Shown here piece after piece: positions 33,944 to 60,696 of a stretch of 64,000 bases of DNA (positions are counted from its first letter, which is position 1; each line of letters begins with the position of its first letter). Source of the DNA: an uncultured Thermoleophilia bacterium (lineage in GTDB: Bacteria > Actinomycetota > Thermoleophilia > UBA2241). The notes under the pieces are model-generated. The model made no database searches. It was not told the origin of the DNA and saw only the letters and a list, made by a program, of their open reading frames with translations. The DNA lies in assembly GCA_963702475.1 (NCBI GenBank), contig CAVPCT010000002.1:320001-384000 (forward strand), in the 5' to 3' direction. A program made the position numbers and the translations under genes.

Positions 33944-34006
33944 TTGACTTCGGCACATCCTTGAGATAGTCTCCGCTATAACTTCGTATACGAACTCTGA
34001 TACGTA
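33944..34006 (+). promoter_or_regulatory. Promoter + tandem operator, copy 1
   Basis: TTGACT-17-TAGTCT then TTCGTATACGAA CTCTGATACGTA. Confidence 0.85.
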
Positions 34007-34315
34007 GTTGGTTCCGAGAGTCGGTCGCGCAAACGAGAAGGTGTGTCGAGAGAAGACTCCCGCCGCGGTGCTCGTCGCACCGCCTTGAACCACTGACCAC
34101 TGCTCCCCCCTGGCAGGATGGAAGTGGCGCGGGAGGGCGGCCCTTGGCCCCAGCCTTGCGACAGGGCGCCGGCCGGATCGCTGGTGGCAGCAGCGGCCGG
34201 CGCCGGACGACGGGGCATGGCCGCCGGACCGGCGGGGAGGCTCCACAGGAGGTCCCCATCGCTCCCACGCGGCGCGTCCTTCGCGCCATGATGGAGACGG
34301 AGCCTTCGCCGGCGA

Positions 34316-34356
34316 GCCGGAGGCGCCGTCCGCCGCGAGCGGGCGGCGCCTCCGGC
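34316..34356 (+). terminator. 18-bp hairpin just before promoter 2
   Basis: GCCGGAGGCGCCGTCCGC-cgcga-GCGGGCGGCGCCTCCGGC then AGTTT. Confidence 0.6.
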
Positions 34357-34376
34357 AGTTTCCAGGGCGCGGACTC

Positions 34377-34437
34377 TGGACTTCGAGAGCGGCCTGCGGT
34401 ACCTTGAGGTAACTTCGTATACGAACTCGGATACGTT
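34377..34437 (+). promoter_or_regulatory. Promoter + tandem operator, copy 2
   Basis: TGGACT-17-TACCTT then TTCGTATACGAA CTCGGATACGTT. Confidence 0.82.
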
Positions 34438-34465
34438 GATTGCTCAGCACACCTGGAGCGGCCAT

Positions 34466-35417
34466 ATGACAGACACCGGAAGAGTCCTCATCGTCGGCGC
34501 CGGCACGATGGGGGAGGGGATCGCGCAGACGTTCGCCCAGCACGGGTCCGGCGTCCGCCTCGTGGACATCAACGACGAGTCCGTCTCCCGCGCGCTCGGT
34601 CAGATCAAGCGCAACGTCCTGCAGTTCGCCGACTTCGGGCTCATCAAGGAGCCCGTCGACCAGGTGATGGGCCGCATCGAGGGCATGGTCACCACCGACA
34701 TGGCACGGGCGGCCGACGGCTGCACCTACGCCGTCGAGGCCGTCCAGGAGATCCTCGAGCAGAAGCTCGACCTGTTCGCCCGGCTGCAGGCGGCCGCCCC
34801 CGAGCTGGCCATCGGCAGCAACACGGGCAGCTTCACCATGGACACGCTCGTCCGAGGGGCTGCCCCGCCCCGACAGGGTGATCGGCATCCACTACTTCAA
34901 CCCGGCGCACATCATCCCGCTGGTGGAGATCCACCGTGGCAGCGCCTGCTCGGACGCGACCTACGAGGAGACGAAGACCCTGCTCGAGGCCTCGGGCAAG
35001 AAGACGGTGCTGGTGCGCGTCGAGCGTCCCGGCTTCATCGTCAACCGTCTCATGGGGGCCCTTGAACGCGAGATCGACTACCTCCTCGACGAGGGCATCG
35101 TGACGCCCGAGGACCTGGACGTCGCCGTGAAGTCGAGCACCGGTTTCCGCTTCGCCTGTCTCGGGCCCATGGAGGTGGAGGACATGATCGGCCTCGACAT
35201 CGCCGCGACGGTGTCGGGACGCGTCTTCAAGGGCCTCTCCAACGCCACCGAGCCGTCGCCCATGCTGCTCGAGAAGGTCGAGCGCGGCGAGCTCGGGATC
35301 AAGGCCGGCAAGGGCTGGTACGACTACAGCGGCAGGACGCGTGCGGAGGTCCTGGAGGAGAAGAACGCCAAGCTGCTTCCGCAGCTCAAGCTGTTCCTGG
35401 ACGCGCAGAAGGACTGA
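34466..35417 (+). CDS. 3-hydroxyacyl-CoA dehydrogenase family protein (frameshift ~34860)
   Basis: GAGTMG, EAVQE, SNT in one frame; HYFNP, PGFIVNR, GPM, DMIGLD in the next. Confidence 0.88.
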
Positions 35418-35458
35418 AGGCCGGGGAACCCGGTCGCCCGCAGACTGAAGGAGGTCCG

Positions 35459-36214
35459 GTGTTCGATCTTACGGGCAAGGTTGCGATCGTGACCGGCGGC
35501 GGCGGCGGCCTGGGCCGTCCCATCTCGGTCGCGCTGGCGCAGTGCGGCGCCGACGTGCTGGTCGACGACTTCGACGCCGATCACCTGGCGGCGACGGTCG
35601 CCGAGATCGAGGCGCTGGGGCGCAGGTGCGTGGCCGTCACGGCCGACCTCACCAGCGCCGCCGCCATGAAAGACATGGCCGACAGGGCCGTGCAGGAGTT
35701 CGGCAGGATAGACATCCTCGTCAACGTGGCCGGCACCAACGCGCGGTTCGACGCCGAGGCGATGCCGCCCGAGGAGTTCGAGCGCGTCCTCCGCGTCAAC
35801 GTGCTGGGCGTGTTCCTGGCCTGCCAGGCGGTCGGCCGGGTCATGATCGAGCAGGGGCAGGGCGTGATCGTCAACATGTCGTCGGTGAGAGGGAGGGTCG
35901 CTCCCGGCATGGGCGGCTCGGCCTACGCCACGAGCAAGGGCGGCGTGGACCAGCTCACGCGCACGCTGGCGGCCGAGTGGGCCAAGTACGGCATCCGTGT
36001 CAACGCCGTGGCGCCGGCGCTGATCATGACCGACATGACCCGCGATTTCCTGTCCAAGCCCGAGGTCTACTCCAAGATGACCGCCGAGATCCCGATGCGG
36101 CGCCTGGGCGAGCCGGGCGAACTGGTCGGGCCGGTCGTTCTGCTGGCCTCGGACGAGTCCAGCTTCATGACCGGCCAGATCGTCTACGTCGACGGCGGGC
36201 TCTCCGCCGTCTGA
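35459..36214 (+). CDS. SDR oxidoreductase (candidate phloroglucinol reductase-like)
   Basis: TGGGGGLG, NVAG, SSVR, YATSK. Confidence 0.9.
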   Translation: MFDLTGKVAIVTGGGGGLGRPISVALAQCGADVLVDDFDADHLAATVAEIEALGRRCVAVTADLTSAAAMKDMADRAVQEFGRIDILVNVAGTNARFDAEAMPPEEFERVLRVNVLGVFLACQAVGRVMIEQGQGVIVNMSSVRGRVAPGMGGSAYATSKGGVDQLTRTLAAEWAKYGIRVNAVAPALIMTDMTRDFLSKPEVYSKMTAEIPMRRLGEPGELVGPVVLLASDESSFMTGQIVYVDGGLSAV

Positions 36215-36256
36215 TCCGCGGCCGGACGCTCGAGACCCGATGGGAGGGCACGACGT

Positions 36257-36598
36257 GTGAAGAAGATCGCGCGCGCGGACGTGACGAAGTACGGCGTCCC
36301 GCCCAAGCACTTCAACGTCAACTCCTGCCGTCTGCAGGGCGAGGCCGAATCGGGGCTCAAGAGCTTCTGGATCGGCTGCTCGCACTACCTGCCCGGCGGC
36401 GGCATCGAGTGGTCGGGCGAAGATTCCGCCGAGGAGAAGGTCTCCATCGTCATCGAGGGCGAGCTCACGGTGAAGGGGGAGGACGAGGAGTTCGCGCTCG
36501 GGCCGCTCGACTCCCTCTACATCGGCCCCAACGAGGCCCGGTCGGTCGTCAACAACGGCACCAGACCGGCCATCATGCTGGTGGTCGTCAACACCTGA
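36257..36598 (+). CDS. Cupin-domain protein lacking the usual metal-binding His residues
   Basis: YLPGGG...EEKVSIVIEGEL...GPLDSLYIGPNEAR. Confidence 0.8.
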   Translation: MKKIARADVTKYGVPPKHFNVNSCRLQGEAESGLKSFWIGCSHYLPGGGIEWSGEDSAEEKVSIVIEGELTVKGEDEEFALGPLDSLYIGPNEARSVVNNGTRPAIMLVVVNT

Positions 36599-39216
36599 TG
36601 GGTCCTGTGCCGGCCGAGGAGCGAGACGTGAAGCAGGCCGTACGGCTCACGAACCTCACCACCGGCGGTCCGGTGCACGTCGACGTGCGCGACGGCAGGA
36701 TCCTGCGCATGGTCCCCCTTGAGCTGGACGAGAGCGACGGGCCGTCGTGGAGCATCACGGCGAGGGGGCGCACGTTCACGCCTCCCCGCCGCACCACGCT
36801 CTCACCGTTCACCGTCGCTCACCGCTCCACCATCTACTCTCCCCGGCGCATCCTCACGCCGCTCAAGCGAGTTGACTTCGACCCCGCGGGCCAGCGCAAC
36901 ACGCACAACCGCGGCAGTTCAGGTTACGAGCCCATCTCGTGGGACGAGGCCCTGGACCTCACCGCCGGCGAGATGACGCGCCTCAGGCGCGAGCACGGCC
37001 CGGCCGCCATGCTGACCTCGCCCGGCTCCCACCACCTGTGGGGGACCCACGGCTACCGCACCAGCGCCTACTACCGCTTCATGGACCTCGTCGGGTTCAC
37101 GTACGGAGAGCACAACCCGGACAGCTGGGAGGGCTGGCACTGGGGCGGCATGCACATGTGGGGCTTCAGCTGGCGCCTCGGCATCCCCGAGCAGTACGAC
37201 CTCCTCGAGGACGCGCTGCAGCACACCGAGCTGCTCGTCTTCTGGTCTTCCGACCCTGAGAGCACCGGCGGCGGCATCTACACGGCCTTTGAGAGCACGC
37301 CCAGGCGGTACTGGTTCAAGGAGCTGGGCGTGAAGATGGTCTTCATCGACCCGTACTTCAACCACACGGCCGAGCTCTTCGGCGACAAGTGGTTCGCGCC
37401 GCGGCCGGGCACCGACGTGGCGATGGGGCTGGCGATCGCTTCCACGTGGCTCTCCGAGGGCCTCTACGACGAGGAGTACGTGGTTACGCGCACCGTCGGC
37501 TTCGACGAGTGGAAGGACTACGTGCTCGGCAGGACCGACAACGTGCCCAAGACGCCGGAGTGGGCCGAGGGGGAGTGCGGCATCCCGGCGCGCCAGATCC
37601 GCGCCCTGGCGCGCGAGTGGGGCACGAAGAGGACCATGCTGGCCGCCGGCGGCAAGGGCGGGTTCGGCGGCGCCTGTCGCTCGGCCACCGGCAACGAGTG
37701 GGCGCGCACCATGATCGCCCTCGCGGCCATGCAGGGCTTGGGCAAGCCGGGCGTCAACATCTGGTCGACGACGCAGGGCGTACCCTGCGACACCGGCTTC
37801 TGGTTCCCCGGCTACAACGAGGGCGGCATCTCGGCCGACGCCAACACCCTGAGCGGCTTCCGTCTGGCCAATCGTCTCTGGCCGGACGGAGGCCCGTGCG
37901 GCAACCCGCACCACTCCACCGAGGGCCAGACTGTCAGCCGTCTCCTCATCCCCGAGGCCATGAGGGGCCAGAGCCTCGAGTGGCGGGGCAAGGGCTTCTG
38001 CGGCTCCTCCATCGAGTCGCAGTTCCAGAAGTACGAGTACCCCGCCCCCGGCTACGACCCGTGCCGTATGTACTACAGGTACGGCGGGTCCTTCATCGGC
38101 ACCATGACCGAGACCAACCGCTACGTCCGAGCCTACCGCGAGGGCGACGTCGAGTTCGTGGTCAACCAGTCGATCTGGTTCGAGGGCGAGGCGCGCTTCG
38201 CCGACGTCATCCTCCCGGCGTGCACCAACTTCGAGCGCTGGGACATCGGGGAGTGGGCGGCGCCCACCGGCGCCGGGGCGTCGTCCACCGACGCCTGCAA
38301 CCACCGCCTCATCGTCTTCCAGCAGAAGTGCATCGAGCCGCTCGGCGAGTCGAAGCCGGACTACGAGATCTTCGCCCTCCTCGCCGGGCGCCTCGGCCTC
38401 GGCCACCTGTACACCCAGGGCCTCACCGACCTGGACTGGGTCAAGCGGCTGTTCCTCGCCAGCGACCTGCCGCAGCGGATCTCCTGGGACGACTTCGCGC
38501 GCAAGGGCTACTACGTGGTGCCCGTGCCTCCGGAAAGGAAGCGCACCCCGGCGCTGCGCTGGTTCGCGGAAGACCGCGAGCGGGACACGCCGGACCTGGG
38601 GCCCAGACCGTGGGAGACCGATCGCCTCAAGGGCCTGCAGACGGCGTCGGGCAGGATCGAGTTCGTCGCTTCCAGCCTCCGGCGCTTCGAGCGCTCCGGG
38701 GCCGTCGACCCCGAACGGCCCGCGCTGGGGCCGCAGTACATCCCCAGCTGGGAGGGCCACCGCACGGCGGAGCTCGTGGCCCGGTACCCGCTGCAACTCA
38801 TCAGCCCGCACCCGCGCTTCTCGTTCCACACCATGGGCGACGGCAAGGGCTCGTGGACCGACGACGTCGCGGACCACCGCGTGCTCGTCGACGGCCACCA
38901 CTACTGGATCCTTCGCCTGAACAGCGCCGACGCGCGGGCGCGCGGCGTCGCCGACGGCGACCTCATCCGGGCCTTCAACGACCGCGGCGAGGTCATCCTC
39001 GCCGCCCAGGTCACGGAGCGCGTGGGCCCCGGCACCGTGCACTGCTACGAGTCGGTCGCCGACTATCTCCCGCTGGGAGAGCCGGGCCACTCGCCGGACG
39101 CCGCCGGCTGCATCAACATCCTCACGCCCAAGCGGTTTGTCACCCCGACCTCGACCGGCATGGCGCCCAACTCCTGCCTCATCCAGGTGGAGCGGTGGGA
39201 GCCGGCACCGGTCTGA
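36598..39216 (+). CDS. Mo-bisPGD enzyme large subunit 1, pyrogallol-phloroglucinol transhydroxylase (AthL) family
   Basis: TGGPVHVDV, TFTPPR, HNPDSWEGWHWGGMHMWGFSWRLG, SPHPRFSFHTMGDGK; no Tat signal. Confidence 0.92.
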   Translation: MGPVPAEERDVKQAVRLTNLTTGGPVHVDVRDGRILRMVPLELDESDGPSWSITARGRTFTPPRRTTLSPFTVAHRSTIYSPRRILTPLKRVDFDPAGQRNTHNRGSSGYEPISWDEALDLTAGEMTRLRREHGPAAMLTSPGSHHLWGTHGYRTSAYYRFMDLVGFTYGEHNPDSWEGWHWGGMHMWGFSWRLGIPEQYDLLEDALQHTELLVFWSSDPESTGGGIYTAFESTPRRYWFKELGVKMVFIDPYFNHTAELFGDKWFAPRPGTDVAMGLAIASTWLSEGLYDEEYVVTRTVGFDEWKDYVLGRTDNVPKTPEWAEGECGIPARQIRALAREWGTKRTMLAAGGKGGFGGACRSATGNEWARTMIALAAMQGLGKPGVNIWSTTQGVPCDTGFWFPGYNEGGISADANTLSGFRLANRLWPDGGPCGNPHHSTEGQTVSRLLIPEAMRGQSLEWRGKGFCGSSIESQFQKYEYPAPGYDPCRMYYRYGGSFIGTMTETNRYVRAYREGDVEFVVNQSIWFEGEARFADVILPACTNFERWDIGEWAAPTGAGASSTDACNHRLIVFQQKCIEPLGESKPDYEIFALLAGRLGLGHLYTQGLTDLDWVKRLFLASDLPQRISWDDFARKGYYVVPVPPERKRTPALRWFAEDRERDTPDLGPRPWETDRLKGLQTASGRIEFVASSLRRFERSGAVDPERPALGPQYIPSWEGHRTAELVARYPLQLISPHPRFSFHTMGDGKGSWTDDVADHRVLVDGHHYWILRLNSADARARGVADGDLIRAFNDRGEVILAAQVTERVGPGTVHCYESVADYLPLGEPGHSPDAAGCINILTPKRFVTPTSTGMAPNSCLIQVERWEPAPV

Positions 39217-39255: not shown

Positions 39256-40071
39256 ATGGATCCCATCATCACCGCCTCGCTCACCGGCCCGGCCGCCACC
39301 AAGAAGGACAACCCGGCGATCCCCGGGACGCCGGAGGAGATCGCGCGGAGCGCCGGGGAGGCCTACGACGCCGGCGCCGCCGTCATCCACATCCACCTGC
39401 GCGACAACGACGACTTCACGACCGACCTCGAGGTGGCGCGGCGCACCGTGGAGCTGGTGCGCGAGCAGTGCCCGGGGATCGTTCAGCTCTCCACCGGGGG
39501 TGGGTTCGAGTACGAGGACCGCATGCGCATCGTCGAGGCGAGACCGGCGATGGCCACCCTGAACCCGGGCACCATGACGATCGGCGACCACGAGTTCCGC
39601 AACCCGCCCAGGCAGATGTACAAGCTCGCCGAGCGCATGCTCGAACTGGGCATCAAGGCCGAGGTGGAGATCTACGACACCGGCCACCTCGGCCTCGCCC
39701 TGGACCTGCTCAAGAAAGGGCTTCTCACCGAGCCGCTGCAGGTCTCGTTCGTGATGGGCGTCAAGGGCGGCATGCCGGCCGACCCGCGCCTGCTCGGCTA
39801 CCTCGTCAACGAGCTCCCGGCCGGCACCAGCTGGCAGGTGATCGCCATCGCGAAGGCCAACCTGCCGCTCACCACCATCGGCCTGGCCATGGGCGGCAAC
39901 GCTCGCACCGGCCTTGAGGACACGCTCTACATCAGGCCGAAGGAGCTCGCCTCGTCCAACGCCCAGCTCGTCGAGGCGCTGGTGAACGTGGCGCGCTCGC
40001 AGCACCTGGAGCCCGCGGGAGTCGAGGAGGTCATCGACCGCCTCAAGCTCAACCGCGACCTGATCGGGTGA
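39256..40071 (+). CDS. Beta-keto acid cleavage enzyme (BKACE/DUF849)
   Basis: IITASLTG, AGAAVIHIHLRD, QLSTGG, ARTGLED. Confidence 0.93.
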   Translation: MDPIITASLTGPAATKKDNPAIPGTPEEIARSAGEAYDAGAAVIHIHLRDNDDFTTDLEVARRTVELVREQCPGIVQLSTGGGFEYEDRMRIVEARPAMATLNPGTMTIGDHEFRNPPRQMYKLAERMLELGIKAEVEIYDTGHLGLALDLLKKGLLTEPLQVSFVMGVKGGMPADPRLLGYLVNELPAGTSWQVIAIAKANLPLTTIGLAMGGNARTGLEDTLYIRPKELASSNAQLVEALVNVARSQHLEPAGVEEVIDRLKLNRDLIG

Positions 40072-40103
40072 CGGAGCAAACCGAGGACCTGGGGGAGGCC
40101 GAG

Positions 40104-40953
40104 ATGGCGGAGCAAGACTACGTGCACATGCCGTCGCTGGAGGAGTACTCGAAGCGGTTCGAGCGCTTCTTCAAGTTCACGCGGTCCGACGACGGCATCC
40201 TCGAGGTGCGGATGCACACATGCGACGGTCCGGTGCGCTGGAGCTACCAGATGCACCACGCCATCTCGGAGCTCTGGACGGCCGTCGGGCACGACGTCAA
40301 GAACGAAGTGCTCATCTTCACGTCCACCGGCGACCAGTGGATCAACGAGGTGGACGCTTCGTCCTTCAAGGATGTCGAGCAGTCCGACGACGACGACCAG
40401 CGTTTCAACGTCCAGATCTACGACACCCTCAAGGTCGTCGAGAACTTCGTCAACGACATCGAGATCCCGACGATCTGCGCCGTCAACGGCCGCGGCATCC
40501 ACTGGGAGATGGCGATGATGAGCGACATCACGCTCTGCACGCCGGACTTCATCCTGCAGGACGACCACTTCGTGATGAAGGGCGGCCACGTGCCCGGCGA
40601 CGGCATGACGATGGCCTTGCAGCAGGTCCTCGGCATCAAGCGCGGCAACTACATGAGCTACACCAACGCGGGCATCGACGCCGAGACCTGCCTCAAGCTC
40701 GGCGCGGTCAACGAGATCGTCGAGCGCGAGCGCATCGTCGAGCGCGCCTGGGAGCTGGCGCGCATGATCATGAAGACCAACCGCTCCACTCGCCGCCTCA
40801 CCCACCACGTCGCCGTGCGGCCGTGGCGCGAACTGGTGGAGCAGAACCTGCGCCAGCACGTGTACGCGGAGATGTACTCGTTCAACCTGGTCAAGTCGTC
40901 CCACGACTTCGACTCAGATCGCCTACTGCGACGACAAGATGGCGGAGATGTGA
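40104..40953 (+). CDS. Crotonase-family beta-diketone hydrolase 1 (6-oxocamphor hydrolase-like; frameshift ~40912)
   Basis: GILEVRMH, AVNGRGIHWE, QDDHF, VPGDG, RAWELAR. Confidence 0.8.
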
Positions 40954-40974
40954 GGAACGGAAGGAGACCTGACC

Positions 40975-41830
40975 ATGGCGATGCAGCCGTACGTGCACGT
41001 GGAGACCGCTCGAGGAGTACGCAGAGCGGTTCAAGGACTTCGCCCACCTGGAGCGCAACGACGAGGGCATCCTCTTCTGCCGCCTCCACTGGAAGGGCGA
41101 GGCCTGCGTGTGGAGCTACCAGACCCAGAACGCCTACGGCGAGCTCTGGACGGCCATCGGTCACGACAAGGAGACCGAGATCGTCATCCTCACCTGCGCC
41201 GACCCCTACTGGATCACGCAGCGCAGCGACCCCGCCTCCTTCGACGAGGTCGAGGACTCAGACTCCACCACGCTCAAGTACAACTGCAACGTGCCCGACA
41301 CGATGAACTTCGTCGAGAACTTCATCAACGACATCGAGGTGCCGGTCATCACGGCCATCAACGGCATCGGCCAGCACTACGAGTTCGGGCTCATGGCCGA
41401 CATCTGCATCTGCGACCCGGACTTCTACTTCTCGGATGCGCACTTCTCGCACAACATCGTCCCGGGCGACGGCATGAACTTCTCCTACCGTATGTGCCTG
41501 GGGCAGAGGCGCGCCTCGTACATGGCGTACATGGAGCCGAAGATCGACGCGCAGACCGCCCTGGCGTGGGGGCTGGTCGACGAGATCGTCGCCCACGACG
41601 AGCTCGTCCCGCGCGCCTACGAGATCGCCCGGCATATCCTCAAGACCGGCCGGGCGGTCCGCCGCCTCACGCACGAGCTCGTCATGCGCCCGTGGAAGCG
41701 CTTCCTGCAGGACGACGAGCGCGTGCGCGTGCTGGCCGAGATGTACGCCGTCCAGCTCGAGGCCACCCGGCACAACTTCGCCAAGATCGCCGCCGACTTC
41801 ACCGGGGGGCGGCCCCAGCACAAGAAGTGA
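40975..41830 (+). CDS. Crotonase-family beta-diketone hydrolase 2, tandem paralog (frameshift ~41005)
   Basis: AAGGAG RBS; AINGIGQHYE, SDAHF, VPGDG, RAYEIAR. Confidence 0.8.
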
Positions 41831-42680: not shown

Positions 42681-42685
42681 GAGCC

Positions 42686-44086: not shown

Positions 44087-44202
44087 CACCGCTCGGAGGC
44101 GGTGCGCCCGCTGCGGGGCGCCGCCGGCCGGCGCCCCGTCCGTCCCGACGACGGGACGGTTGGAGCGGTCGTCGCCCCAAGAAGATAGGCAGCGGGATGG
44201 TG

Positions 44203-44263
44203 TTGACTTCCCTCCGGACGAGCGGTAGTCTGCGATAACTTCGTATACGAACTCGCATTCTAG
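44203..44263 (+). promoter_or_regulatory. Promoter + tandem operator, copy 3
   Basis: TTGACT-17-TAGTCT then TTCGTATACGAA CTCGCATTCTAG. Confidence 0.85.
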
Positions 44264-44301
44264 TAGGCCTGTCGCTAGTTCCAGGGGGGTGTCGAAGCCT
44301 C

Positions 44302-44361
44302 TTGACTCTCACGCAGGCGGGCGCTACGCTCTGATACTCCGTATACGAACTCGGATACGTA
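44302..44361 (+). promoter_or_regulatory. Promoter + tandem operator, copy 4
   Basis: TTGACT-17-TACGCT then TCCGTATACGAA CTCGGATACGTA. Confidence 0.85.
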
Positions 44362-50743: not shown

Positions 50744-53282
50744 ATGGCAGAGCAGGAATTCATCAACTGCTGCATCGGCGGCATGGTCAAGGTCACCGTC
50801 GAGGACGGCGTGATCAAGCGCATGCGCCCTCTGCGTCTGACCGAAGAGGACGGCGGCCGCTGGACGCATCGAGGCCAAGGGCAAGCGGTTCACCGACCCG
50901 CGCAAGACCACGATCAACCCGTTCAACATCGCCGAGCGCACGCGCGTGTACGCGGAGAACCGCATCAAGTACCCGATGAAGCGCAAGAACTTCGACCCCG
51001 AACGGCGAGCGGCACCCCGAGCTGCGCGGCAAGGACGAGTACGTGCGCATCACCTGGGACGAGGCGCTGGACCTGGTCACCAGCGAGATCACGCGCGTGC
51101 GCGAGACCTACGGCCCGGCGGCCATCACCGCCTTCGTCTCGCTCGCACCACAACTACGGGCTGCTGTACTACAAGATGGGCCCCATGCCGCGCTTCTACA
51201 ACATCCTCGGCTACACCCAGCTCCTGGACAATCCGGACAGCTGGGAGGGCTGGCACTGGGGCAGCATGCACACCTGGGGCTGGTACTGGCGGTTCGGCCA
51301 GTGCGACTGCTTCGACATGCTGGCCGAGGCGCTCAAGAACACCGAGCAGCTCATCTACTGGTCGGTGGACCCCAACACCTCGGCCGGCGGCTACGGCGGC
51401 CAGGAGACCGTGATCTGGCGCGAGTGGCTGCGCGAGCTGGGCGTCGGCGCCATCTTCATCGACCCCTACTGCAACGCGACCGCCGCGCACATGGCCGACA
51501 AGTGGCTCGCGCCGCGGCCCGGCACCGACGCGGCGCTGGCGCAGGCGATCGCCTGGCAGTGGATCGTGGACGACACCTACGACCACTGGTTCATCGAGAA
51601 CCGCACCGTCTACTTCGACGAGTGGAAGGACTACATCCTCGGCAAGGTCGACGGCGTGCCCAAGACGCCCGAGTGGGCGGCCCCCATCTGCGACATCCCG
51701 GCGCACACCATCAAGGCGGTGGCCAGGCAGTGGATGTGCAAGAAGACGATGCTGGCCACCGGGTCCATGTACGGCACCGCCGGGGCCTGCCGCAACTCGT
51801 TCGCCACCGAGTGGGCCAGCCTCATGATCCACCTGGCCGCGATGATGGGCATCGGCAAGGAGGGCGTGAACATCTGGGGCGGAGCCGCTCACGGCGCTCC
51901 GCTGGACATGCGCTTCAAGAGCGCCGGCTACTCCGACTGCGGCTGGGACGTCTTCGGCCTGGTGGCCGAGCAGCCCACCTTCCCCGACCGCAACTCGGTC
52001 ACGCAGAAGGTGTACCGGCTCAGCCTGCCGGAGGCGATCCTCGACGGCCACATCGAGTGGTACGGCGAGGGCTTCTGCGTGCAGTACCCCGAGCAGCAGT
52101 TCAAGCCCATGCAGTACCCCGAGCCCGGCCCGAACGGCGCCGAGATCAAGATGATCCACCGCCACGGCGGCTCGTTCATCAGCACCATGAGCGACACCAG
52201 CAAGTGGGTGCGCATGTACCAGAGCCCCAAGCTGGAGTTCGTGGTGATGCAGGACTGCCACTGGCAGAGCGAGACGAAGTTCGGCGACGTGATCCTGCCG
52301 GCCTCCACCAACTTCGAGCACAACGACATCTCGGAGTGGGCGCAGCCGGGCGGCTACGGCAACGGCAACGTCAACTGCAACCACCGCATCCTGATGTACC
52401 AGCAGAAGTGCATCGAGCCGCTGTGGGAGTCCAAGCCGGACTACCAGATCTACTGCGAGCTGGCCGAGCGCCTGGGCTTCCTCGAGGAGTACACCGAGGG
52501 CAACTCGGAAGAGGACTGGATCAAGAAGGTCTTCGCGATCACCGACCTGCCCAAGCACCTCACCTACGAGGAGTTCAAGGAGAAGGGCTACTTCGTGGTG
52601 CCGTCGGTGCCCGACGACTACGAGCCCACGATCTCCAACCAGTGGTACTACGAGGGACGCCCGGTCGACACGCCGGACAGGTTCAACCCGCTGGCCGACA
52701 CCGAGCACGCCACCGAGATGGCCACCCCCTCGGGCAAGATCGAGTTCAAGCGGACCATCCTCGAGAAGTACTTCCCCGACGACGAGGAGCGGCCGATCAT
52801 GCCGCGCTACATCCCGCTGTACGAGGGGCACGAGACCACCGGGCCTCGTGGACAAGTACCCGCTCATCATCATGACGCCGCACGCCAAGTTCTCGTACCA
52901 CACGCACCAGGACAACAAGATCCAGTGGCTCAACGACATCAGGCAGCACCGGATCATCAAGGACGGCTACCCGTACTGGCCGATGCGCCTGAACCCGGGT
53001 GACGCCGAGGAGCGGGGCATCAAGGACGGCGACATCGTCGAGGTCTACAACGACCGCGCCAGGGTGCTCGGCGTGGCCCTGGTGACCGAGCGCTGCCGCC
53101 CGGGCCTGGTGCACTCCTACCAGGCCGGCGCCAAGTACGACCCGCTCGAGCCCGGCAACGCCGACAGCGTGGACAGAGGCGGGTGCGTCAACCTGCTGTC
53201 GCCGTCTCGCTACACCAGCAAGAACGCCTGCGGCGAGGCCAACATGTCCTATCTCGTCGAAGTCCGCAAGTGGGAGGCCTGA
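50744..53282 (+). CDS. AthL-family Mo-bisPGD large subunit 3 (frameshifts ~50866, 50998, 51140, 52843)
   Basis: Close paralog of subunit 2; DNPDSWEGWHWG, TPHAKFSYHT, DRGGCVNLL. Confidence 0.9.
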
Positions 53283-53284: not shown

Positions 53285-54115
53285 ATGACCCGGTATGGGA
53301 TGGTGATCGACGTCGACAGGTGCGTGGGGTGCTACAACTGCTTCCTCACCTGCCGCGACGAGTACGCCGGCAACGCGTACCCCGGCTACTCCGCCCCTCA
53401 GCCGATGAGCGGCATGGACTGGATGAAGGTCAACGAGATCGAGCGCGGGCAGTACCCGCACGTCAAGGTCGACCACGTGCCCGTGACCTGCGCGCACTGC
53501 GACTCCGCCGTCTGCGTCACCCTGGACCAGACCGGGGCCATCTCACCGGCGCGCGGACGGCATCGTGCTGATCGACCCGGAGAAGGCCAAGGGCAACAAG
53601 GGCCTGGTGGCGCTGTGCCCGTATCGCCAGATCGAGTGGAACGAGGAGCTCCAGCTGGCGCAGAAGTGCACCCTGTGCGCGCACCTGCTGGACGCGGGCG
53701 ACCCGGAGCCCCGCTGCGTGGAGTCCTGCCCGAGCGGGGCGATCGATCTTCGGCGACCTCGACGACCCCAGCAGCAAGGTCGCCGCGCTGGTGGCCTCGG
53801 GGACCGAGGTCGATTCACCCCGAGTACGCGATGGGCGAGAAGGTCACGTACAAGGGCCTGCCCAAGAAGTTCGTCGCCGGCACCGTCGTCTACGGCGACG
53901 TGGACGAGGTCGCCGCCGGGATCGACGTGGTGCTGACCGGCGACGGCGTGAGCGAGACCATGAAGACCAACGGCTTCGGCGACTTCGAGTTCGACGGCCT
54001 CGCGGACGCCGCCACCTACACGGTCACCGTCGAGGCGCCGGGCTACGCGCCCGCCACCCTGAAGGCCACGACGCGCAGGGACCTCTACCTGGGCGAGATC
54101 GTCCTGCAGAAGTAG
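53285..54115 (+). CDS. Transhydroxylase-type small Fe-S subunit with C-terminal beta-sandwich (three frameshifts)
   Basis: CVGCYNCFLTC, CAHC...C, CPY, KCTLCAH, PRCVESCP, TNGFGDFEFDGL. Confidence 0.88.
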   Translation: MTRYGMVIDVDRCVGCYNCFLTCRDEYAGNAYPGYSAPQPMSGMDWMKVNEIERGQYPHVKVDHVPVTCAHCDSAVCVTLDQTGAISPARGRHRADRPGEGQGQQGPGGAVPVSPDRVERGAPAGAEVHPVRAPAGRGRPGAPLRGVLPERGDRSSATSTTPAARSPRWWPRGPRSIHPEYAMGEKVTYKGLPKKFVAGTVVYGDVDEVAAGIDVVLTGDGVSETMKTNGFGDFEFDGLADAATYTVTVEAPGYAPATLKATTRRDLYLGEIVLQK

Positions 54116-54121
54116 GCCGGC

Positions 54122-55572
54122 ATGCCTGGGATCACAGCATACGGAGCGTACATCCCGCTGCACCGGCTGAGCCGGGCGGAGATCGCGCGGGCGTGGGGCG
54201 GCAAGGCGGCCCCGGGCGAGCGCGCGGTCGCGAGCTACGACGAGGACAGCCTCACCATGGCCGTGGCCGCGGCGCGGGACTGCCTCAGGGACGCGGACCG
54301 CGCCACGGTCGGCGCGGTGTACTTCGCCTCCACCACGGCGCCCTACAAGGAGAAGCAGTCGGCCGCCGACCATCGCGTCGGTGCTGGACCTGCCGCCGGA
54401 CACGGCGACCGCGGACTTCGGCGGCTCGCTGCGCTGCGGCACCAACGCCCTCAAGGCGGCGCTGGACGCGGTGGCGGCCGGGAGCGCGCAGAGCGTGCTG
54501 GTCTGCGCCGCGGACATGCGCCTCGGGCTACCCCGCCGGCCCCGGCGAGATGAACTTCGGGGACGGCGCCGTGGCGCTGCTGGTCGGCGCCGGCGAGACG
54601 CTCGCCGAGGTCGAGCACTTCGACAGCCGCTACTGGGAGATCCAGGACACCTGGCGCTCGGACCAGGACACCTTCGTGCGCACGGCCGAGGACCGCTTCT
54701 CGATGGACGAGGGCTACGCCGACGTCATGGTGCACAGCGTGGCGGCGGCCCTCGAGAAGTACGGGCTGGCCGCCGCCGACGTGGCGCACTTCGCCTTCAA
54801 CGCCCCCAACGTGCGCCAGGTCAAGGGCGTCGCGAAGAAGCTCCGCTTCGACGAGCAGACCCAGGTCAACGACGTGCTGCACGCGTCGGTGGGCGACACG
54901 GGCTGCGCCGCGAGCCTGCTCAGCCTGGTCGCGGCGCTGGAGCAGTCCAGGGGCGGCGAGACGATCCTCCTGGCCTGCTACGGCAACGGCTGCGACACCG
55001 CCGTCCTGCGGACGACGGACCGCGTCGGCTCCGTGCCGGCCTGTCGCGGCGTGCGCGGGCACATCGAGTCCCGGCGCGAGCTGAGGAACTACGAGCAGTA
55101 CCTGCGCTGGCGCGGGCTGCTCCCGATCCAGCCGGCCGCGCGCCCGCCCGTCGAGGAGCGCATGCCCTCGCCGGCGGCCCAGTGGCGCGAGGTGCCCTGG
55201 GAGATGCGGCTCACGGGCACGAGGTGCCTGCACTGCGGCACGCCGCAGTACCCGCCGCAGCGCGTGTGCGTCACGTGCCACACCAAGGACGAGATGGAGC
55301 CGTACCGGTTCACCGACGTGCCGGCGAGGCTGTTCTCGTTCTCGCACGACTACGTGATGGAGACCCTGGACACGCCGGTCACCGTGACCTTCGTCGACTT
55401 CGAGGGCGGCGGCCGCCTCATGTGCGACATGACCGACCGCGACCCGGACGAGGTCGCGGTCGGCATGCCCCTCGAGATGTCGTTCCGCCGTCTCTACTAC
55501 GTGAACGGCGTCTACAACTACTGGTGGAAGTGCCAGCCGGTCAGGTGCCGGCAGACCGGGACCGAGGTGTGA
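54122..55572 (+). CDS. HMG-CoA-synthase-like domain fused to DUF35 (Zn-ribbon/OB-fold); frameshifts ~54370, ~54525
   Basis: GITAYGAYIP, DEDSLTMA, GDGAVA, VGDTG, YGNG, then CLHCG...PPQRVCVTC and FEGGGR. Confidence 0.85.
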
Positions 55573-55574
55573 CC

Positions 55575-56761
55575 GTGGAGAGCATCAAGGACAGAGTCGC
55601 GATCGTCGGCATGGGCTGCGTCAAGTTCGGCGAGAACTGGGGCCAGAGCCTCGAGGACATGATCATCGACGCCGCCTACGAGGCGTTCGAGGACGCCGGC
55701 ATCGGGCCGGACGACATCCAGGCGGCGTGGTGGGGCACGGTGTTCGCCGGCCACACCGGCCAGATCCTGGCCGCGCCGCTCAAGCTCGCCTACATCCCCG
55801 TCACGCACGTCGAGAACGCCTGCGCGACGGGCTCCGAGGCCATCAGGAACGCCTGCTACGCGGTGGCCGCCGGCCAGTACGACATCGTGCTCGCCGTCGG
55901 CGCCGAGAAGCTCAAGGACTTCGGCTACTCCGGCCTGCCGCAGACGCGGCCGGTCGCCACCTGGAGCTACCGGCTCACCACCCAGACGCCGGCGGCCGGG
56001 TTCGCCATGATGGCCACCGCCTACTTCGCCAAGTACGGGCTCGAGTACGACGTGGGCAAGGACCTCCTCGGGCAGATCGCCGTCAAGAACCACCACAACG
56101 GCTCGCTCAACCCCAAGGCCCACTTCCAGCGCGAGATCACGCCTGGAGCAAGGCCGTCAACGCGCCGATGATCGCCTGGCCGCTCGGGCTGTTCGACTGC
56201 TGCGGCGTGAGCGACGGCGCGGCGGCCGCGGTCATCACCCGGGCCGACCTGGCCAAGAAGTTCCGGCCGGACCCCATCTACATCAAGGCCGCGCAGATCT
56301 GCCAGGGCCCGCGCGAGGGCTGGCTCAGCCAGGTCTACGACCTCGCGCACGTGGAGGAGACGTACCGCGGCGGCCAGGCCGCCTACGCGGAGGCCGGCAT
56401 CAAGGACCCGCGCAAGGAGATCAGCATCGCCGAGGTGCACGACTGCTTCTCCATCACCGAGCTCACGATCATGGAGGACCTGCAGTTCAGCCCGCGGGGA
56501 CGCGCCGGCGAGGACATCGAGGCCGGCACGTTCGCCATCGAGGGCGAGCTGCCGGTGAACACCGACGGGGGCCTCAAGTGCTTCGGCCACCCCATCGGTG
56601 CGACCGGCCTGCGCATGCTCTACGAGGTCTACAAGCAGCTGCAGGAGAAGGCCGGGCCTCGGCAGGTGAAGGACCCGCGCCTCGGCCTGACCCACAACCA
56701 GGGCGGCGAGCCCGGGTCCGCCACCGTCAGCGTCATCATCGCCGGCAACGAGCTGGGCTGA
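55575..56761 (+). CDS. Thiolase, SCP2/PhlC type (frameshift ~56145)
   Basis: ENACATG, KNHHNG, VSDGAAA, EVHDCF, GHPIGATG. Confidence 0.9.
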
Positions 56762-56775
56762 GGGGGCCGAGGCTA

Positions 56776-56836
56776 TTGACTTCCCGGGGAGCCCGCACTA
56801 CGATGTGGCAACTTCGTATACGAACTCGCATACGCA
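56776..56836 (+). promoter_or_regulatory. Promoter + tandem operator, copy 5 (upstream of MarR, autoregulation)
   Basis: TTGACT-17-TACGAT then TTCGTATACGAA CTCGCATACGCA. Confidence 0.85.
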
Positions 56837-56912
56837 CATGAAAACGTCCCCAGACAGCATGGCCGCGAGCGTGGTCGACGACCACAAGGGCCCAACGGGA
56901 TCGGAGGGCGAA

Positions 56913-57420
56913 TTGCCCGTCACAGAGTCTCGCTCGGTCTCCGACGAGTACTTCATGCTGTGGGTGCTGATCGCCCAGACCAAGGACGCGATCCTGCGTG
57001 CGCGAGAGCTCGAGTACGCGCGCTACGGCATCAGCAACGAGCGGCGCGCGATCCTGGCCATCATCCAGCGCAACGGCGGCCGCAGCACCCCGGTGGACAT
57101 CGCCCGGGACCTCTTCCGCGAGCTCCACTCCGTCACCGAGATGCTCGTGCGCATGGAGCGGGACGGCCTCATCGTGAGGCACAAGGGGACGGGCCGGTCC
57201 AAGGTGGAGGTCAGCCTCACCGAGCAGGGCCTCGACGTCTTCCACCAGTCCCTGAACAGCGAGGCGGACAGCAGGATCTTCTCGGTGCTCACCAAGAAGC
57301 AGCGTGAGCGCCTCTCGCAGTACCTGTGGAAGCTGCGCGGCAGGACCATGGAGCATCTCGGCATCCCCGAGTGGCAGCTCACCTTCCTGCCCGCAGCCCG
57401 ACGAGAAGGAGGGACCCTGA
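56913..57420 (+). CDS. MarR-family transcriptional regulator (probable +1 indel ~57391 hides the stop)
   Basis: GGAGG RBS + TTG; TPVDIARDLFRELHSVTEMLVRMERDGLI, VSLTEQG. Confidence 0.85.
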
Positions 57421-57597
57421 CGCGCGCGACCGGGGCGGTCGCGCCGGCGGCCTGTGAGGGGCCGTCGCACAGGCGTCCACGACGAGGACGGACCGAAGGA
57501 GGCTGGTATTCACCGAGGGGGTTCGATCAAGGTGTCACGACGCAAGCTGCATCGCACGGAGCACCAAGGAAGAGTCATGGCAAACAGGGGGAGTGAT

Positions 57598-58682
57598 ATG
57601 AAGAGTTCGAAATGGGCCATCGTGCTGCTGATCGTCATCCTGGCGGTGAGCCTCTCGGTCGTGCTCGCCGCCTGCGGCGGCGACGAGCCGGCGGCGGAGG
57701 AGTCCGCGGCGGCCGTCGAGGACACGGGCCAGACGTGGGACCTCAAGTTCAGCTACCCGACGCCTGAGCGCGCCAGCCTCGTACCGGCGTACCTCGTGCC
57801 GTGGAGCGAGGCCGTCACCATGGCCACCGACGACCGCGTGAAGATCACCCACTACGCCGAGAACTCGCTGGTCAAGGAAGAGCAGCAGTGGGACGCCCTG
57901 CTCTCGGGCACGTCGGACATCGCCCTGATCGAGCCGGAGTTCAACCCCGGCATGTTCCCGATCTCGGAAGTCGGCTCGCTGCCGTACCAGTTCCCGGACG
58001 CGGTCACGGCCGCCAAGACGTTCTGGGACGTCGTCACCCAGAAGGCCCAGGATGAGTGGAAGGACGTGCAGGTCCTCGGCGTGACGGTCATCGCGCCGGC
58101 CCAGTACCGCGGCAACGTCGAGGTCAAGGGCGACGTCACCAAGTTCGAGGGCACGCGCATGCGGTCCGGCGGCACGGATCGAGACCTGGATCGTCGAGGC
58201 GTTCGGCGCGACCCCGGTGGAGATCGGGACCGGCGACCTCTCGACGTCGCTCGAGCGCGGCATGGCCGACGGCGCCTTCCTCAGCTACTCGCTGATCCTG
58301 GCCATGGCCAAGGACTTCACCAAGTACACGACCGAGTGCAACATGTTCTATCGCTGCTGGGTCATCGCGATGAACAAGGACGTCTGGAACTCCATGCCGA
58401 CGACCGTCCAGGACCAGATCATGGGCGTGAGCGGGCAGGAGGGCTCGGCCAAGTACTCGGCCGCCAACGCCGGAGTCGAAGCGGCGAGAAGAAGGGCCTC
58501 GAGGGCGCCGACAAGGGCATGGGCAATCCGCCGATCTACGTGCTGACCGCGGCGAGCTCGCCACGTGGACCGAGGCGTGCCAGCCGGTCATCCAGAAGTG
58601 GATCGACCAGCTGTCCGACCCGGCGACCGGCCAGGAGGTCATCGACTTCATCGCCGCGCAGAACGCGACCTACGCCCAGTAA
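57598..58682 (+). CDS. dctP: TRAP transporter substrate-binding lipoprotein (frameshifts ~58178, 58485, 58550)
   Basis: Lipobox LAAC; FEGTRMR, LERGMADG, MNKDVWNSMP. Confidence 0.85.
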
Positions 58683-58695
58683 GCGACACGTGACT

Positions 58696-58736
58696 GACGG
58701 CCGGCCCCGGCCCAGTCCTCGCCGGGGCCGGCCGTC
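58696..58736 (+). terminator. Hairpin between dctP and dctQ
   Basis: GACGGCCGGCCCCGGC-9 nt-GCCGGGGCCGGCCGTC. Confidence 0.6.
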
Positions 58737-58760
58737 CCATACAGCAGTGAAGGGACGCCT

Positions 58761-59318
58761 ATGAACGAACATGGACGACCGGAGGGTGACGCGGCGCTGC
58801 CGGCCTCAGGGCTGGTGCGGTTCGCCGACTCGTTCGAGGCCCTCCTCGGGAAGATCTACACGGCCGATCGCGTGGGTCGGGGCCGCCACCTTGGCTGCGC
58901 TGGTCGTGGCGATGTTCTGCTCCGTCATCGGGCGCAGGTTCTTCAACTCCCCGCTGGAGGGCTCCGGGGACATCATCGAGATGTCGCTGCTGATCATGAC
59001 CGCCACGGTCCTGGGCCTGGAGCACCTCGGCCACGAGAAGATGACCGTCGACATCCTCAGCAAGCAAGTTCTCGAAGAAGGCGCAGGCGATCATCGCTCC
59101 GTCATCTACTGCCTCGCCATCGCCATCCTGTGCCGTGGCGTTCTAGAGTTGATGGTGTGGGCCGGCAAGCTCTTCGAGCGCGGCGAGACCACGCCCGGGC
59201 GTGCTGGAGCTCCCCAAGTACCCCTTCGCCTACCTGATCGCGTTCGGGATCCTCACGCTGGTCCCCATCTACGTGGTCCGGCTGCTGCGGGCCATCGGAC
59301 GAGGTGAGGCGGCCATGA
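58761..59318 (+). CDS. dctQ: TRAP small permease (frameshifted)
   Basis: VIGRRFFNSPLEGSGDIIE, KMTVDIL, LELPKYPF. Confidence 0.78.
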
Positions 59319-60635
59319 GCACCCTTCCGCTGTGGGCCTGCGGCATCATCGGCGCGGGGGTCTTCTTCGGCCTCATGTTCCTCAAGCTCCACGTCGGCCT
59401 CTCGATGATGATCGGCGGGTTCGTGGGCTTCATCCTGACCCGGGGTCTGCCGGCCGCAGAGATCGACCCTGCGAGGACGATCTTCGAGGTGTCCACCTCG
59501 CCGATCCTGGTCATCATCCCGCTGTTCGTGCTGATGGGCGTCATCGCGGGGGCCGGCGGAGTCATCGCCGCCGCGTTCGAGACCTTCGACAAGTGGCTGG
59601 GGCACCTGCGCGGCGGCCTGGCCATGGCCACCGTGGGCGCGTGCGCCGCGTTCGGGGCCGTGTGCGGCGACAACATCGCCACGGCGGTGACGATGAACAA
59701 GGCGGCCCTGCCCGCAGATGCGGAAGCTGGGGTACGACGACAAGCTCTCCTTCGGCTCCATCGCCGCCGGCGGCAACCTCGGCATCCTGATCCCGCCGAG
59801 CGCCGCGTTCGTGGTGTACGGCTTCATCACCGAGAACAACATCGCCAACCTGTTCGTCTCGGGCATCCTGCCCGGCATCATCCTGACCGCGATGTTCATG
59901 GTCGACGATCGCGATCTGGTGCAAGCGTGACCCGAGCCTGTCCTCGAAGCACGAGCCCCAGACCCATGAAGGTCAGGCTGGCCTCGCTGCAAGGGGCTGA
60001 TCGGCATCGTCGCGGTGTTCGTGCTCGTGATGGGCGGCCTCATGGGCGGCGTCTTCACGCCGCAGGAGGCCGGCGCCGTGGGTACGGTCGCGATGATCGT
60101 CGTGAGCCTCTTCTACAGGCAGCTCACGTGGAAGAAGCTGGGCCACGCCCTGGTGGAGTCGACGAAGACGTCCGCCATGATCCTGCTGCTCATCATGGGG
60201 GCGAGGTACTTCAGCTACTTCATCACCACGACGGAGCTGCCGCAGACGCTCTCCGACCTGATCCTCAACGCGAACCTCAACGGCTACATCGTGATCATCC
60301 TGGTGTGCATCCTGTGGATCATCCTGGGCATGCTCATGGACATCTGGTCGGTGATGATCATCACGCTGCCGATCTTCTACGGCATCCTGCTCACCCTGGG
60401 GTTCGACCCGCTGCAGCTGGGCGTGATCGTGGTGCTGTGCATCATGCTGGGCTGCGTCACCCCGCCGGTGGGCGTGGTGGTGTTCTCGCTGGCCGGCATG
60501 CACAGGGACGTGCCGATGTACACCATCTTCAAGGGTGTCTGGCCGTTCATCTACGCGATGGTCATCTTCCTGCTGATGATCATCTTCATCCCTTGGATCA
60601 GCACGTTCCTGCCTAGCCTCGTGGTACCAGGCTAG
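59315..60635 (+). CDS. dctM: TRAP large permease (frameshifted)
   Basis: IPLFVLMG, GHLRGGLA, GILIPPS, FTPQEAG, VTPPVG. Confidence 0.88.
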
Positions 60636-60655
60636 CCAGCCGACCTGCAGAATGG

Positions 60656-60696
60656 AGACTCCCCTGCCTCGTCCGGCGGATGAGGCAGGGGAGTCT
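60656..60696 (+). terminator. Hairpin at the right end of the island
   Basis: AGACTCCCCTGCCTCGTCC-ggc-GGATGAGGCAGGGGAGTCT. Confidence 0.65.

Follow-up and report, generated by a model that had tools for sequence, protein, structure and literature searches.

The 64,000-nucleotide stretch of DNA analysed here (the window; positions 320,001 to 384,000 of contig CAVPCT010000002.1, assembly GCA_963702475.1), from an uncultured Thermoleophilia bacterium, carries an island of about 23 genes, which forms an unbroken run on the + strand from 34466 to 60635, as delimited by codon-position G+C and by Pfam and NCBIfam matches. On the basis of sequence comparisons, and with somewhat better than even confidence, we interpret this island as a regulon for the oxygen-independent catabolism of polyhydroxy-aromatic compounds through a variant of the phloroglucinol route, in which hydrolases of the 6-oxocamphor hydrolase (OCH) type would take the place of the cyclase-family dihydrophloroglucinol cyclohydrolase (DPGC). 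Most likely, a soil or sediment actinobacterium would use it to take up plant-derived polyhydroxy-aromatics. The original prediction had described the same block as a complete pathway for the anaerobic fermentation of pyrogallol or phloroglucinol in a Thermoleophilia-like actinobacterium. The co-oriented block is real, and the families listed for it are recognised by Pfam and NCBIfam, including molybdenum (Mo) enzymes of the AthL family, a short-chain dehydrogenase/reductase (SDR), a dehydrogenase of the 3-hydroxyacyl-CoA dehydrogenase (3HCDH) family, a beta-keto acid cleavage enzyme (BKACE), a thiolase, an ADP-forming acyl-CoA synthetase and a TRAP uptake system. At the level of family or fold the additional genes are also as described (OCH-type beta-diketone hydrolases, a protein with the M29/NicX fold and a lactonase), and the nearest relatives of the locus are indeed from Thermoleophilia. 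The assignment of the key steps, and the completeness of the pathway, are not supported. What is new is the presence of OCH-type hydrolases in place of DPGC; the rest is a variant of the known pathway.

Phloroglucinol is a hub for the mineralisation of tannins and flavonoids without oxygenases. The published pathway, as given in the accessible part of its description (PMC10470551), consists of PGR (phloroglucinol reductase, an SDR), DPGC (a Mn2+ enzyme of the "cyclase" family), TfD (a 3HCDH-family member that has lost the CoA-binding Lys/Asn and works on the free acid) and TAL (a BKACE). We scanned 117 stop-to-stop + strand open reading frames (ORFs) of the region 31815-63963 against Pfam, and 39 pieces against NCBIfam; no cyclase-family (PF04199) gene is found among the Pfam matches of the island ORFs, so that, contrary to what had been claimed, not all of the pathway families are present. 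The island does encode a tandem pair of crotonases, ECH1 and ECH2, which are 45% identical to each other. The closest solved relatives of ECH2 are 6-oxocamphor hydrolase (3e-31, 109 bits) and the Anabaena beta-diketone hydrolase, and His122, His145 and Asp154 of OCH are conserved in both island proteins (the column of His122 can be placed from the H122A mutant entry, 1szo; Glu244 falls outside the alignment). Dihydrophloroglucinol is a cyclic beta-diketone, and the retro-Claisen chemistry of OCH-type enzymes would therefore suit the opening of its ring.

The distribution of these crotonases bears on their role. A scan with ECH2, restricted to one genome per species, returned 34 loci, about 17 of them in metagenome-assembled genomes (MAGs) of Actinomycetota and others in Acidobacteriota, Lachnospiraceae and Oscillospiraceae; two of the Actinomycetota MAGs are Thermoleophilia, and one, at 97% identity, has the same gene order. 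SDR, 3HCDH and BKACE genes occur together in the flanks of 16 of the 34 loci, AthL-type genes in 14, a cupin gene in 12 and a synthetase gene in 11, and a cyclase homolog lies within 10 kb in a single case. The Lachnospiraceae locus, with the order SDR-thiolase-BKACE-3HCDH-butyrate kinase-BDH (BDH being the beta-diketone hydrolase homolog), has no cyclase within its flanks. In a sample centred on the BKACE, a close homolog was found in 6 of 401 Actinomycetota genomes; one of the six neighbourhoods is of the BDH type without a cyclase, three are of the cyclase type without a BDH, and two are uninformative. SDR-dehydrogenase-BKACE clusters thus carry an OCH-type hydrolase or a cyclase, almost never both, and the cupin is common to the two types. 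Moreover, in a maximum-likelihood tree of 40 SDRs, 13 from BDH-type and five from cyclase-type clusters share a single clade (98/98) that is separate from 21 others and is itself divided into two sister groups, one for each type; the window SDR falls inside the clade. The tree is built from matches of at least 225 residues without stops, a limit that leaves out the Lachnospiraceae SDRs, and it contains no characterised PGR sequence. Both the either/or pattern and the sister SDR groups are as expected if two hydrolases alternate within one type of pathway.

The genome itself holds three cyclase-family copies (C3:580454, C9:91337 and C9:92146; C2, C3, C4 and C9 denote contigs of the assembly), the first of them in a canonical-looking cluster at C3:575001-585000 with an AthL-like gene, IclR, SDR(s), 3HCDH, a second IclR, cyclase, cupin, BKACE, a Peripla_BP_6 binding protein and an ABC transporter. 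The BKACE of this cluster is 69% identical to that of the island, and among the NCBIfam models no equivalog names its cyclase, SDR or dehydrogenase. The 531-residue Peripla_BP_6 protein (L053:7827-9419 in our set of loci) recurs beside both cyclase-type and BDH-type clusters (L019, L032, L033, L069 and L070) and probably takes part in the uptake of substrates of the same class.

The Mo enzymes also point to a second system. AthL1 aligns over its full length with the large subunit of the Pelobacter acidigallici transhydroxylase (4v4c_A, 1180 bits); the AthL-like first domain, PF21423, is recognised in AthL1 (5e-25), AthL2 (9e-23) and, in pieces, Mo3 (2.8e-6), and the BthL-like small subunit, whose gene follows that of Mo3, matches 4v4c_B (E 8e-27). 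His144, Asp174, Ser175, Trp176 and Tyr404 (4v4c numbering, from the alignment) are conserved in all three large subunits. We take Ser175 to be the Mo ligand, together with Asp174, His144 and Tyr404, and Arg153 and Trp354 to belong to the substrate pocket of 4v4c. A gene elsewhere in the genome, at C4:267316-269886, is the better counterpart of the Pelobacter enzyme: it scores 1710 bits on 4v4c_A, keeps Arg153 and Trp354, and is adjoined by a beta-subunit homolog, whereas AthL1 has the lower score and no small-subunit gene next to it. The lower score, the changed pocket residues of the island proteins and the presence of the C4 ortholog together indicate that the island Mo enzymes are paralogs, and not the genome's ortholog of pyrogallol transhydroxylase. 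With this athL/bthL ortholog on C4 and the cyclase-type cluster on C3, the island appears as a paralogous system, and its substrate is probably a substituted or differently hydroxylated relative. Arg153 and Trp354 are found in paralogs at C4, C9:106-108k and C3:566-568k. The genome has 16 PF21423 matches, counted as 15 AthL-like large-subunit genes (C2, C3, C4 and C9 are among the contigs that carry them), and thus shows a large expansion of transhydroxylase paralogs; many of the 15 are adjoined by a BthL-like gene, and the residue at position 153 differs from one to another (R, K, F, W, H, P or V). We also considered whether the three subunits could be catechol dehydroxylases and rejected this, since all three match 4v4c_A or PF21423 and catechol dehydroxylases cluster apart from the transhydroxylase, according to the part of PMC7028382 available to us.

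From the gene content we infer the following flow. An aromatic acid would be imported by the TRAP system and would lose its carboxyl group through the Amidohydro_2 protein, a candidate LigW/ACMSD-type enzyme whose nearest solved relatives, with weak matches (2e-8), are the 5-carboxyvanillate (LigW), gamma-resorcylate and ACMSD decarboxylases (an Atlas look-up of one piece gave the family name only). The three Mo large subunits and the single BthL-type Fe-S subunit could then shift the hydroxyl groups to a 1,3,5-type ring, which the SDR would reduce to a cyclic beta-diketone. Of 7999 proteins scored in a search with this SDR, 5290 matched at E<=1e-30, and there was no characterised reductase among the 120 listed, which are metagenome proteins of 69-92% identity with generic names. 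One or both of the 6-oxocamphor-hydrolase-type enzymes may open the ring by retro-Claisen cleavage, replacing the cyclase-family DPGC. The resulting 3-hydroxy acid would be oxidised by the 3HCDH-family dehydrogenase, for whose C-terminal piece the best NCBIfam model is FHMPC dehydrogenase, a family member with a non-CoA substrate (142 bits), and the beta-keto acid so formed would be cleaved with acetyl-CoA by the BKACE. Acetate and ATP might finally be obtained through the SCP2-type thiolase, with its HMGS-like and DUF35 partners, and the ADP-forming acyl-CoA synthetase. The proposed pathway is oxygen-independent. A wider proposal, more tentative and in our estimate possible without being probable, is that the OCH-type crotonases represent a second, non-homologous dihydrophloroglucinol hydrolase of Actinomycetota, Acidobacteriota and some Lachnospiraceae, and that the extra Mo paralogs carry out sequential hydroxyl shifts of the hydroxyhydroquinone/tetrahydroxybenzene type. 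We know of no genes for shifts of that type.

The island most likely constitutes a single regulon, repressed by its own MarR-family protein (MarR_2 match, 4e-5) through a predicted palindromic operator. This 17-bp element, AACTTCGTATACGAACT, has a 12-bp core, TTCGTATACGAA, that is a perfect palindrome; exact copies start at 33980, 34411, 44237 and 56810 of the window, and a copy with two mismatches at 44335. They occupy three intergenic gaps, which precede the first gene, the Amidohydro_2 gene and the MarR gene, so that the palindrome is present both at the regulator's own promoter and at those of its presumptive targets. In the whole 4.3-Mb genome the sole exact copy outside the island is at C9:9226, 5' of a paralogous MarR gene, and a copy with three mismatches lies at C9:20691. 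The core palindrome, with at most one mismatch, was found in 9 of the 34 related loci, all nine in Actinomycetota. The idea that the genes stand under one operator is therefore sound as regards joint control, but not as regards a single site, since five copies in three gaps argue for a MarR-type regulon with three or more units rather than for a single operon. The hexamer TTGACT is found at 33943, just 5' of O1, and coincides with the start given for the island in the original prediction (33944). The interval 33997-34410, between O1 and O2, comprises about 410 nt without a coding-type ORF and may be a long leader or contain a second promoter. A scan of 33700-48300 for consensus promoters and terminators gave no promoter and four terminator-like sites (4.3 expected), and is uninformative in a G+C-rich genome. 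In contigs from other sequencing runs, 329 letters replace the window's 154 at 44258-44413, a segment that holds O4 and the region 5' of the Amidohydro_2 start; either populations differ in this control region or the window is misassembled at this place.

No fewer than 20 genes or gene parts in the island shift frame, many being split into two to four pieces. The indels had been noticed in the original prediction and are confirmed as frame breaks, and they appear to be mostly assembly insertions, the genes being intact in nature rather than decaying. When contigs of four other public runs (sediment and wastewater metagenomes) were aligned to 34201-54200, they lacked the extra single bases at no fewer than 11 of the window's break points (40914, 42684, 43502, 43895, 43980, 47353, 50142, 50996, 51139, 52841 and 53545); in the same contigs 73 letters replace the window's 51 at 40955-41007. 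Pfam domains are whole, and none is split, in all of 21 flanking housekeeping ORFs of 1-31811. The breaks are thus confined to the island, and, taken with the other-run contigs, this suggests local assembly errors. A second copy of the distal half of the island, from the 3' end of the lactonase gene to DctM, lies at C9:1-13057 and corresponds to window 47626-60613 with a DNA identity of 88-92%. It differs from the window by 84 gaps, mostly of single bases and not bound to homopolymers, and lacks the same extra bases at five of the listed break points; segments of it are 98-99% identical to the island in protein. The copy begins at the very end of contig C9, and downstream of it the sequence departs from the window's; it could represent a paralog, or else a variant from another strain that was binned into this MAG, whose contamination is 6.5%. 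The errors probably arise from reads of such a paralog or strain mixed into the consensus. That the breaks are real, and the genes pseudogenes in this strain, would fit their concentration in the island beside 21 unsplit flanking ORFs and the fact that they are not confined to homopolymers. We regard decay as very unlikely, however, because the extra bases are missing from nearly identical contigs of other runs, because protein identity to orthologs is 60-97% on either side of each break, because the C9 copy bears different indels, and because segments nearly identical in protein can confuse a consensus.

The protein with the NicX-like fold has no Pfam match and no sequence match in the PDB. 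It belongs to a rare family (out of 1.84 billion, 160 representative clusters match at E<=1e-3 and 28 at 1e-30), and a weak Peptidase_M29 match was obtained for one of 15 distant homologs. A fold predicted from a 35-sequence alignment (pLDDT 91.4) best matches NicX, 7cn3 (E 4e-19, TM 0.62-0.72), followed by PepS, AmpS and AmpT, and the Atlas agrees with this predicted similarity; an earlier prediction from seven sequences (pLDDT 48) was discarded. Together with the lactonase gene, the gene for this protein accompanies the BDH homolog in Actinomycetota, in one Acidobacteriota locus and in one Oscillospiraceae locus. The last of these, in a MAG (L040:1488-10810), contains the lactonase, the NicX-fold gene, a Liv-type ABC transporter, a Peripla_BP_6 binding protein and the BDH homolog, and has no SDR, BKACE or Mo genes.

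How firmly the island can be tied to ring opening in a phloroglucinol-type pathway has to be judged against several findings. Ring opening could be provided in trans by the cyclase cluster that the genome has on C3. In 10 or more of the 34 BDH loci, in Oscillospiraceae among others, none of the SDR, 3HCDH and BKACE partners is present, and the two of these loci that were examined lie in housekeeping surroundings. AthL1 has no adjacent beta subunit and has Phe at the position of Trp354, with Arg153 kept, and AthL2 and Mo3 have Lys at position 153 and Ala or Thr at position 354. NicX is an O2-dependent dioxygenase, and a protein of that fold makes an oxygen-dependent branch possible. On the NCBIfam triacetate model, NF053538, the island BKACE scores 163 bits against a cut-off of 430, and it lies closer to Kce, with 261 bits. 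That model may be narrow, since the corresponding enzymes of the cyclase-type cluster on C3 (161 bits) and of the Lachnospiraceae cluster (190 bits) fail to reach the cut-off as well. Lastly, the 60 best solved relatives of the window SDR do not include PDB entry 5g4k, which, like 5g4l, is presumably phloroglucinol reductase. Some of these findings would be accommodated if the island were a co-regulated mosaic, in which the crotonases cleave other beta-diketones (triacetate, the acyl side chains of acylphloroglucinols, or what results when the lactonase and the NicX-fold protein open a lactone or pyrone) and the C3 cyclase opens dihydrophloroglucinol. The recurrence of the NicX-fold and lactonase genes near BDH in three phyla would agree with this, as would the Oscillospiraceae locus without SDR, BKACE and dehydrogenase and the solitary BDH homologs in many Firmicutes loci. 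Moreover, the genome has three genes of the DAPG/phloretin-hydrolase family (PF18089) within 6 kb (C9:185429-191223), near a synthetase-BKACE-AthL cluster at C9:174-180 kb, which makes acylphloroglucinols likely substrates of the organism. Against such a mosaic stand the alternation of BDH and cyclase beside SDR-3HCDH-BKACE and the BDH clusters of Lachnospiraceae and other relatives that have no cyclase in their flanks, and cleavage of the triacetate type is already covered by the BKACE; we consider it doubtful.

The reading in the original prediction, that the island is the organism's own pyrogallol/phloroglucinol fermentation pathway, with AthL1 as transhydroxylase, the Amidohydro_2 protein as cyclohydrolase and the extra genes as an upper funnel, is in our view unlikely. 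It has in its favour that AthL1 is homologous to the Pelobacter enzyme over its full length, that the SDR, 3HCDH-family and BKACE genes are adjacent, and that an ATP-yielding synthetase and a transporter are present. However, DPGC is a cyclase-family Mn enzyme, as far as described in PMC10470551, and the Amidohydro_2 protein is nearest to decarboxylases. The C4 paralog, with its better score, its Trp354 and its adjoining beta-subunit homolog, is a stronger candidate than AthL1 for the transhydroxylase, and the canonical cyclase-type cluster on C3 speaks against the island as the complete pathway of the organism. In addition, the genome encodes a haem-copper oxidase (COX1) and a cytochrome bd oxidase, so that "anaerobic fermentation", and with it a strict anaerobe, go beyond the evidence. 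In any event, the OCH-type hydrolases in place of DPGC, within a second and paralogous system, remain the reading that we prefer.

The features of the island are collected in Table 1, for which gene starts were checked and gene boundaries were guided by orthologs. The G+C content of the window is 0.65-0.78. Genes for ribosomal proteins L21 and L27 and for Obg (31815-33787) and a 680-nt non-coding stretch precede the island, within which there is no convincing minus-strand gene, the minus-strand ORFs showing an antisense-type codon composition. On its 3' side, also on the + strand, follow a CitMHS_2 transporter gene (60684-62072), a 146-residue ORF without a Pfam match and an MFS transporter gene (62517-63749); no operator copy precedes the genes of 60684-63749.

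Table 1. Genes and control elements of the island, in window coordinates.
Feature	Position	Strand	Basis and remarks
Control region	33940..34445	+	TTGACT 33943; operator O1 33980-33996; operator O2 34411-34427, about 40 nt 5' of first start codon
3HCDH-family dehydrogenase, TfD-like candidate	34466..35417	+	Pfam, NCBIfam; frame break near 34851-34870
SDR reductase, phloroglucinol-cluster SDR clade	35459..36214	+	Pfam, NCBIfam, tree
Small cupin	36215..36598	+	Pfam; start uncertain, first GTG 36257
AthL1, Mo hydroxytransferase large-subunit paralog	36598..39216	+	Pfam, match to 4v4c_A; no adjacent beta subunit
BKACE	39256..40071	+	Pfam, NCBIfam
ECH1, beta-diketone hydrolase-like crotonase 1	40068..40972	+	Pfam, alignment; extra base near 40914
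ECH2, beta-diketone hydrolase-like crotonase 2	40975..41830	+	Nearest solved structures; frame break near 41007
ADP-forming acyl-CoA synthetase, ATP-grasp (beta) part	41982..42680	+	Pfam, NCBIfam
ADP-forming acyl-CoA synthetase, CoA-binding (alpha) part	42681..44228	+	Pfam, NCBIfam; extra bases 42684, 43502, 43895, 43980
Operators O3 44237-44253 (exact) and O4 44335-44351 (2 mismatches)	44237..44351	+	Genome motif scan
Amidohydro_2 protein, decarboxylase-like	44545..45469	+	Pfam, nearest solved structures; frame break near 44900
NicX/M29-fold protein, rare family	45540..46694	+	Predicted fold; start GTG 45540 or TTG 45504
7-bladed beta-propeller lactonase	46725..47910	+	Pfam; extra base 47353
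AthL2, Mo large-subunit paralog	48181..50722	+	Pfam; extra base 50142
Mo3, third Mo large-subunit paralog	50744..53282	+	Pfam; extra bases 50996, 51139, 52841
BthL-like Fe-S small subunit, C-terminal CarboxypepD_reg-type domain	53285..54115	+	Pfam, 4v4c_B; frame breaks, one at 53545
HMG-CoA-synthase-like gene, then DUF35 (ChsH2 zinc ribbon + OB)	54122..55572	+	Pfam, NCBIfam; internal boundary near 55200 unfixed owing to frame breaks
SCP2-type thiolase	55575..56761	+	Pfam, NCBIfam; frame break near 56141
Operator O5, 5' of regulator gene	56810..56826	+	Genome motif scan
MarR-family regulator	56859..57596	+	NCBIfam; start uncertain, C-terminal tail probably out of frame
TRAP solute-binding lipoprotein DctP	57598..58764	+	Pfam; lipobox LAAC = lipoprotein signal; frame breaks
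TRAP small permease DctQ	58771..59307	+	
TRAP large permease DctM	59297..60635	+	Pfam, NCBIfam; frame breaks

If a crotonase-type hydrolase can indeed replace DPGC, surveys based on marker genes would undercount phloroglucinol degraders; PGR, DPGC, TfD and TAL serve as markers in gene-based surveys of soils, peat, sediments, rumen and gut, as stated in the accessible part of PMC10470551. The same replacement, if true, would explain genomes that have phloroglucinol reductase and no DPGC; a preprint of which a part was available (10.64898/2026.07.17.739263) describes genomes with pgthAB and PGR but without DPGC. In the part of a 2026 review that we could consult, only the Clostridium and Collinsella routes are named (PMC13039779). 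Our literature search found no OCH-type or diketone hydrolase linked to phloroglucinol or dihydrophloroglucinol, the paper on the Collinsella route and the supplementary cluster tables of PMC10470551 lying beyond its reach, and entries on cyclohexanedione hydrolase, resorcinol reductase and dihydroresorcinol, at the level of the listings, gave no gene identity in this context. Moreover, the island brings together a small group of putative transhydroxylases, paralogs in which pocket residues are altered, and its operator and regulator could serve as an inducible sensor for the true substrate.

Among known systems the closest is the PGR-DPGC-TfD-TAL cluster of Clostridium scatologenes (Zhou et al., 2023, mBio; PMC10470551, seen in part), in which SDR, 3HCDH dehydrogenase and BKACE genes likewise stand side by side and thiolase, acyl-CoA/ATP-yielding, transporter and regulator genes are also present. 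The island differs from it in lacking a cyclase-family DPGC, two OCH-type crotonases standing there instead, in adding the cupin, the three Mo subunits, the NicX-fold protein, the lactonase and the Amidohydro_2 protein, in having a BKACE that does not reach the threshold of the NCBIfam model for the triacetate enzyme, and in the use, for ATP, of an ADP-forming synthetase and not of phosphotransacetylase and kinase. With 6-oxocamphor hydrolase of Rhodococcus (1o8u) and the Anabaena hydrolase (2j5g), its nearest solved relatives, the crotonase pair shares the fold and the conserved His122, His145 and Asp154. These enzymes catalyse a CoA-independent retro-Claisen cleavage of a cyclic beta-diketone, as the opening of dihydrophloroglucinol requires; in contrast, the island crotonases are distant from them, tandem and set in a polyphenol context.

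Like AthL/BthL of Pelobacter acidigallici (4v4c), an enzyme that transfers a hydroxyl group between pyrogallol and tetrahydroxybenzene, the island has large subunits with the AthL-like first domain and the five conserved residues, and a small subunit that matches BthL. Unlike that system, it has one beta for three alpha subunits, places AthL1 between the cupin and the BKACE, and contains paralogs that reach at most 1180 bits, with Trp354 replaced in all three and Arg153 in two. The predicted fold of the NicX-like protein resembles that of the 2,5-dihydroxypyridine 5,6-dioxygenase NicX of Pseudomonas putida (7cn3/7cup) and of the M29 aminopeptidases, but identity to NicX is 13%, and a family member is also encoded in an Oscillospiraceae MAG, a setting in which one would not expect a dioxygenase. 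Finally, the adjoining HMGS-like, DUF35 and SCP2-type thiolase genes are reminiscent both of the archaeal thiolase/HMG-CoA synthase/DUF35 complex (6esq/6et9) and of PhlACB of Pseudomonas (5m3k). The trio had been taken for a PhlABC-like module; the three genes are present, but closeness to PhlC is not borne out, as the thiolase half scores 101-109 bits against archaeal and SCP2-type thiolases (101 for the archaeal enzyme) and 62 against PhlC. In the island, unlike in these complexes, the trio follows the Mo subunits, and three related loci show this arrangement again (Mo subunits-beta-HMGS-like-DUF35-thiolase).

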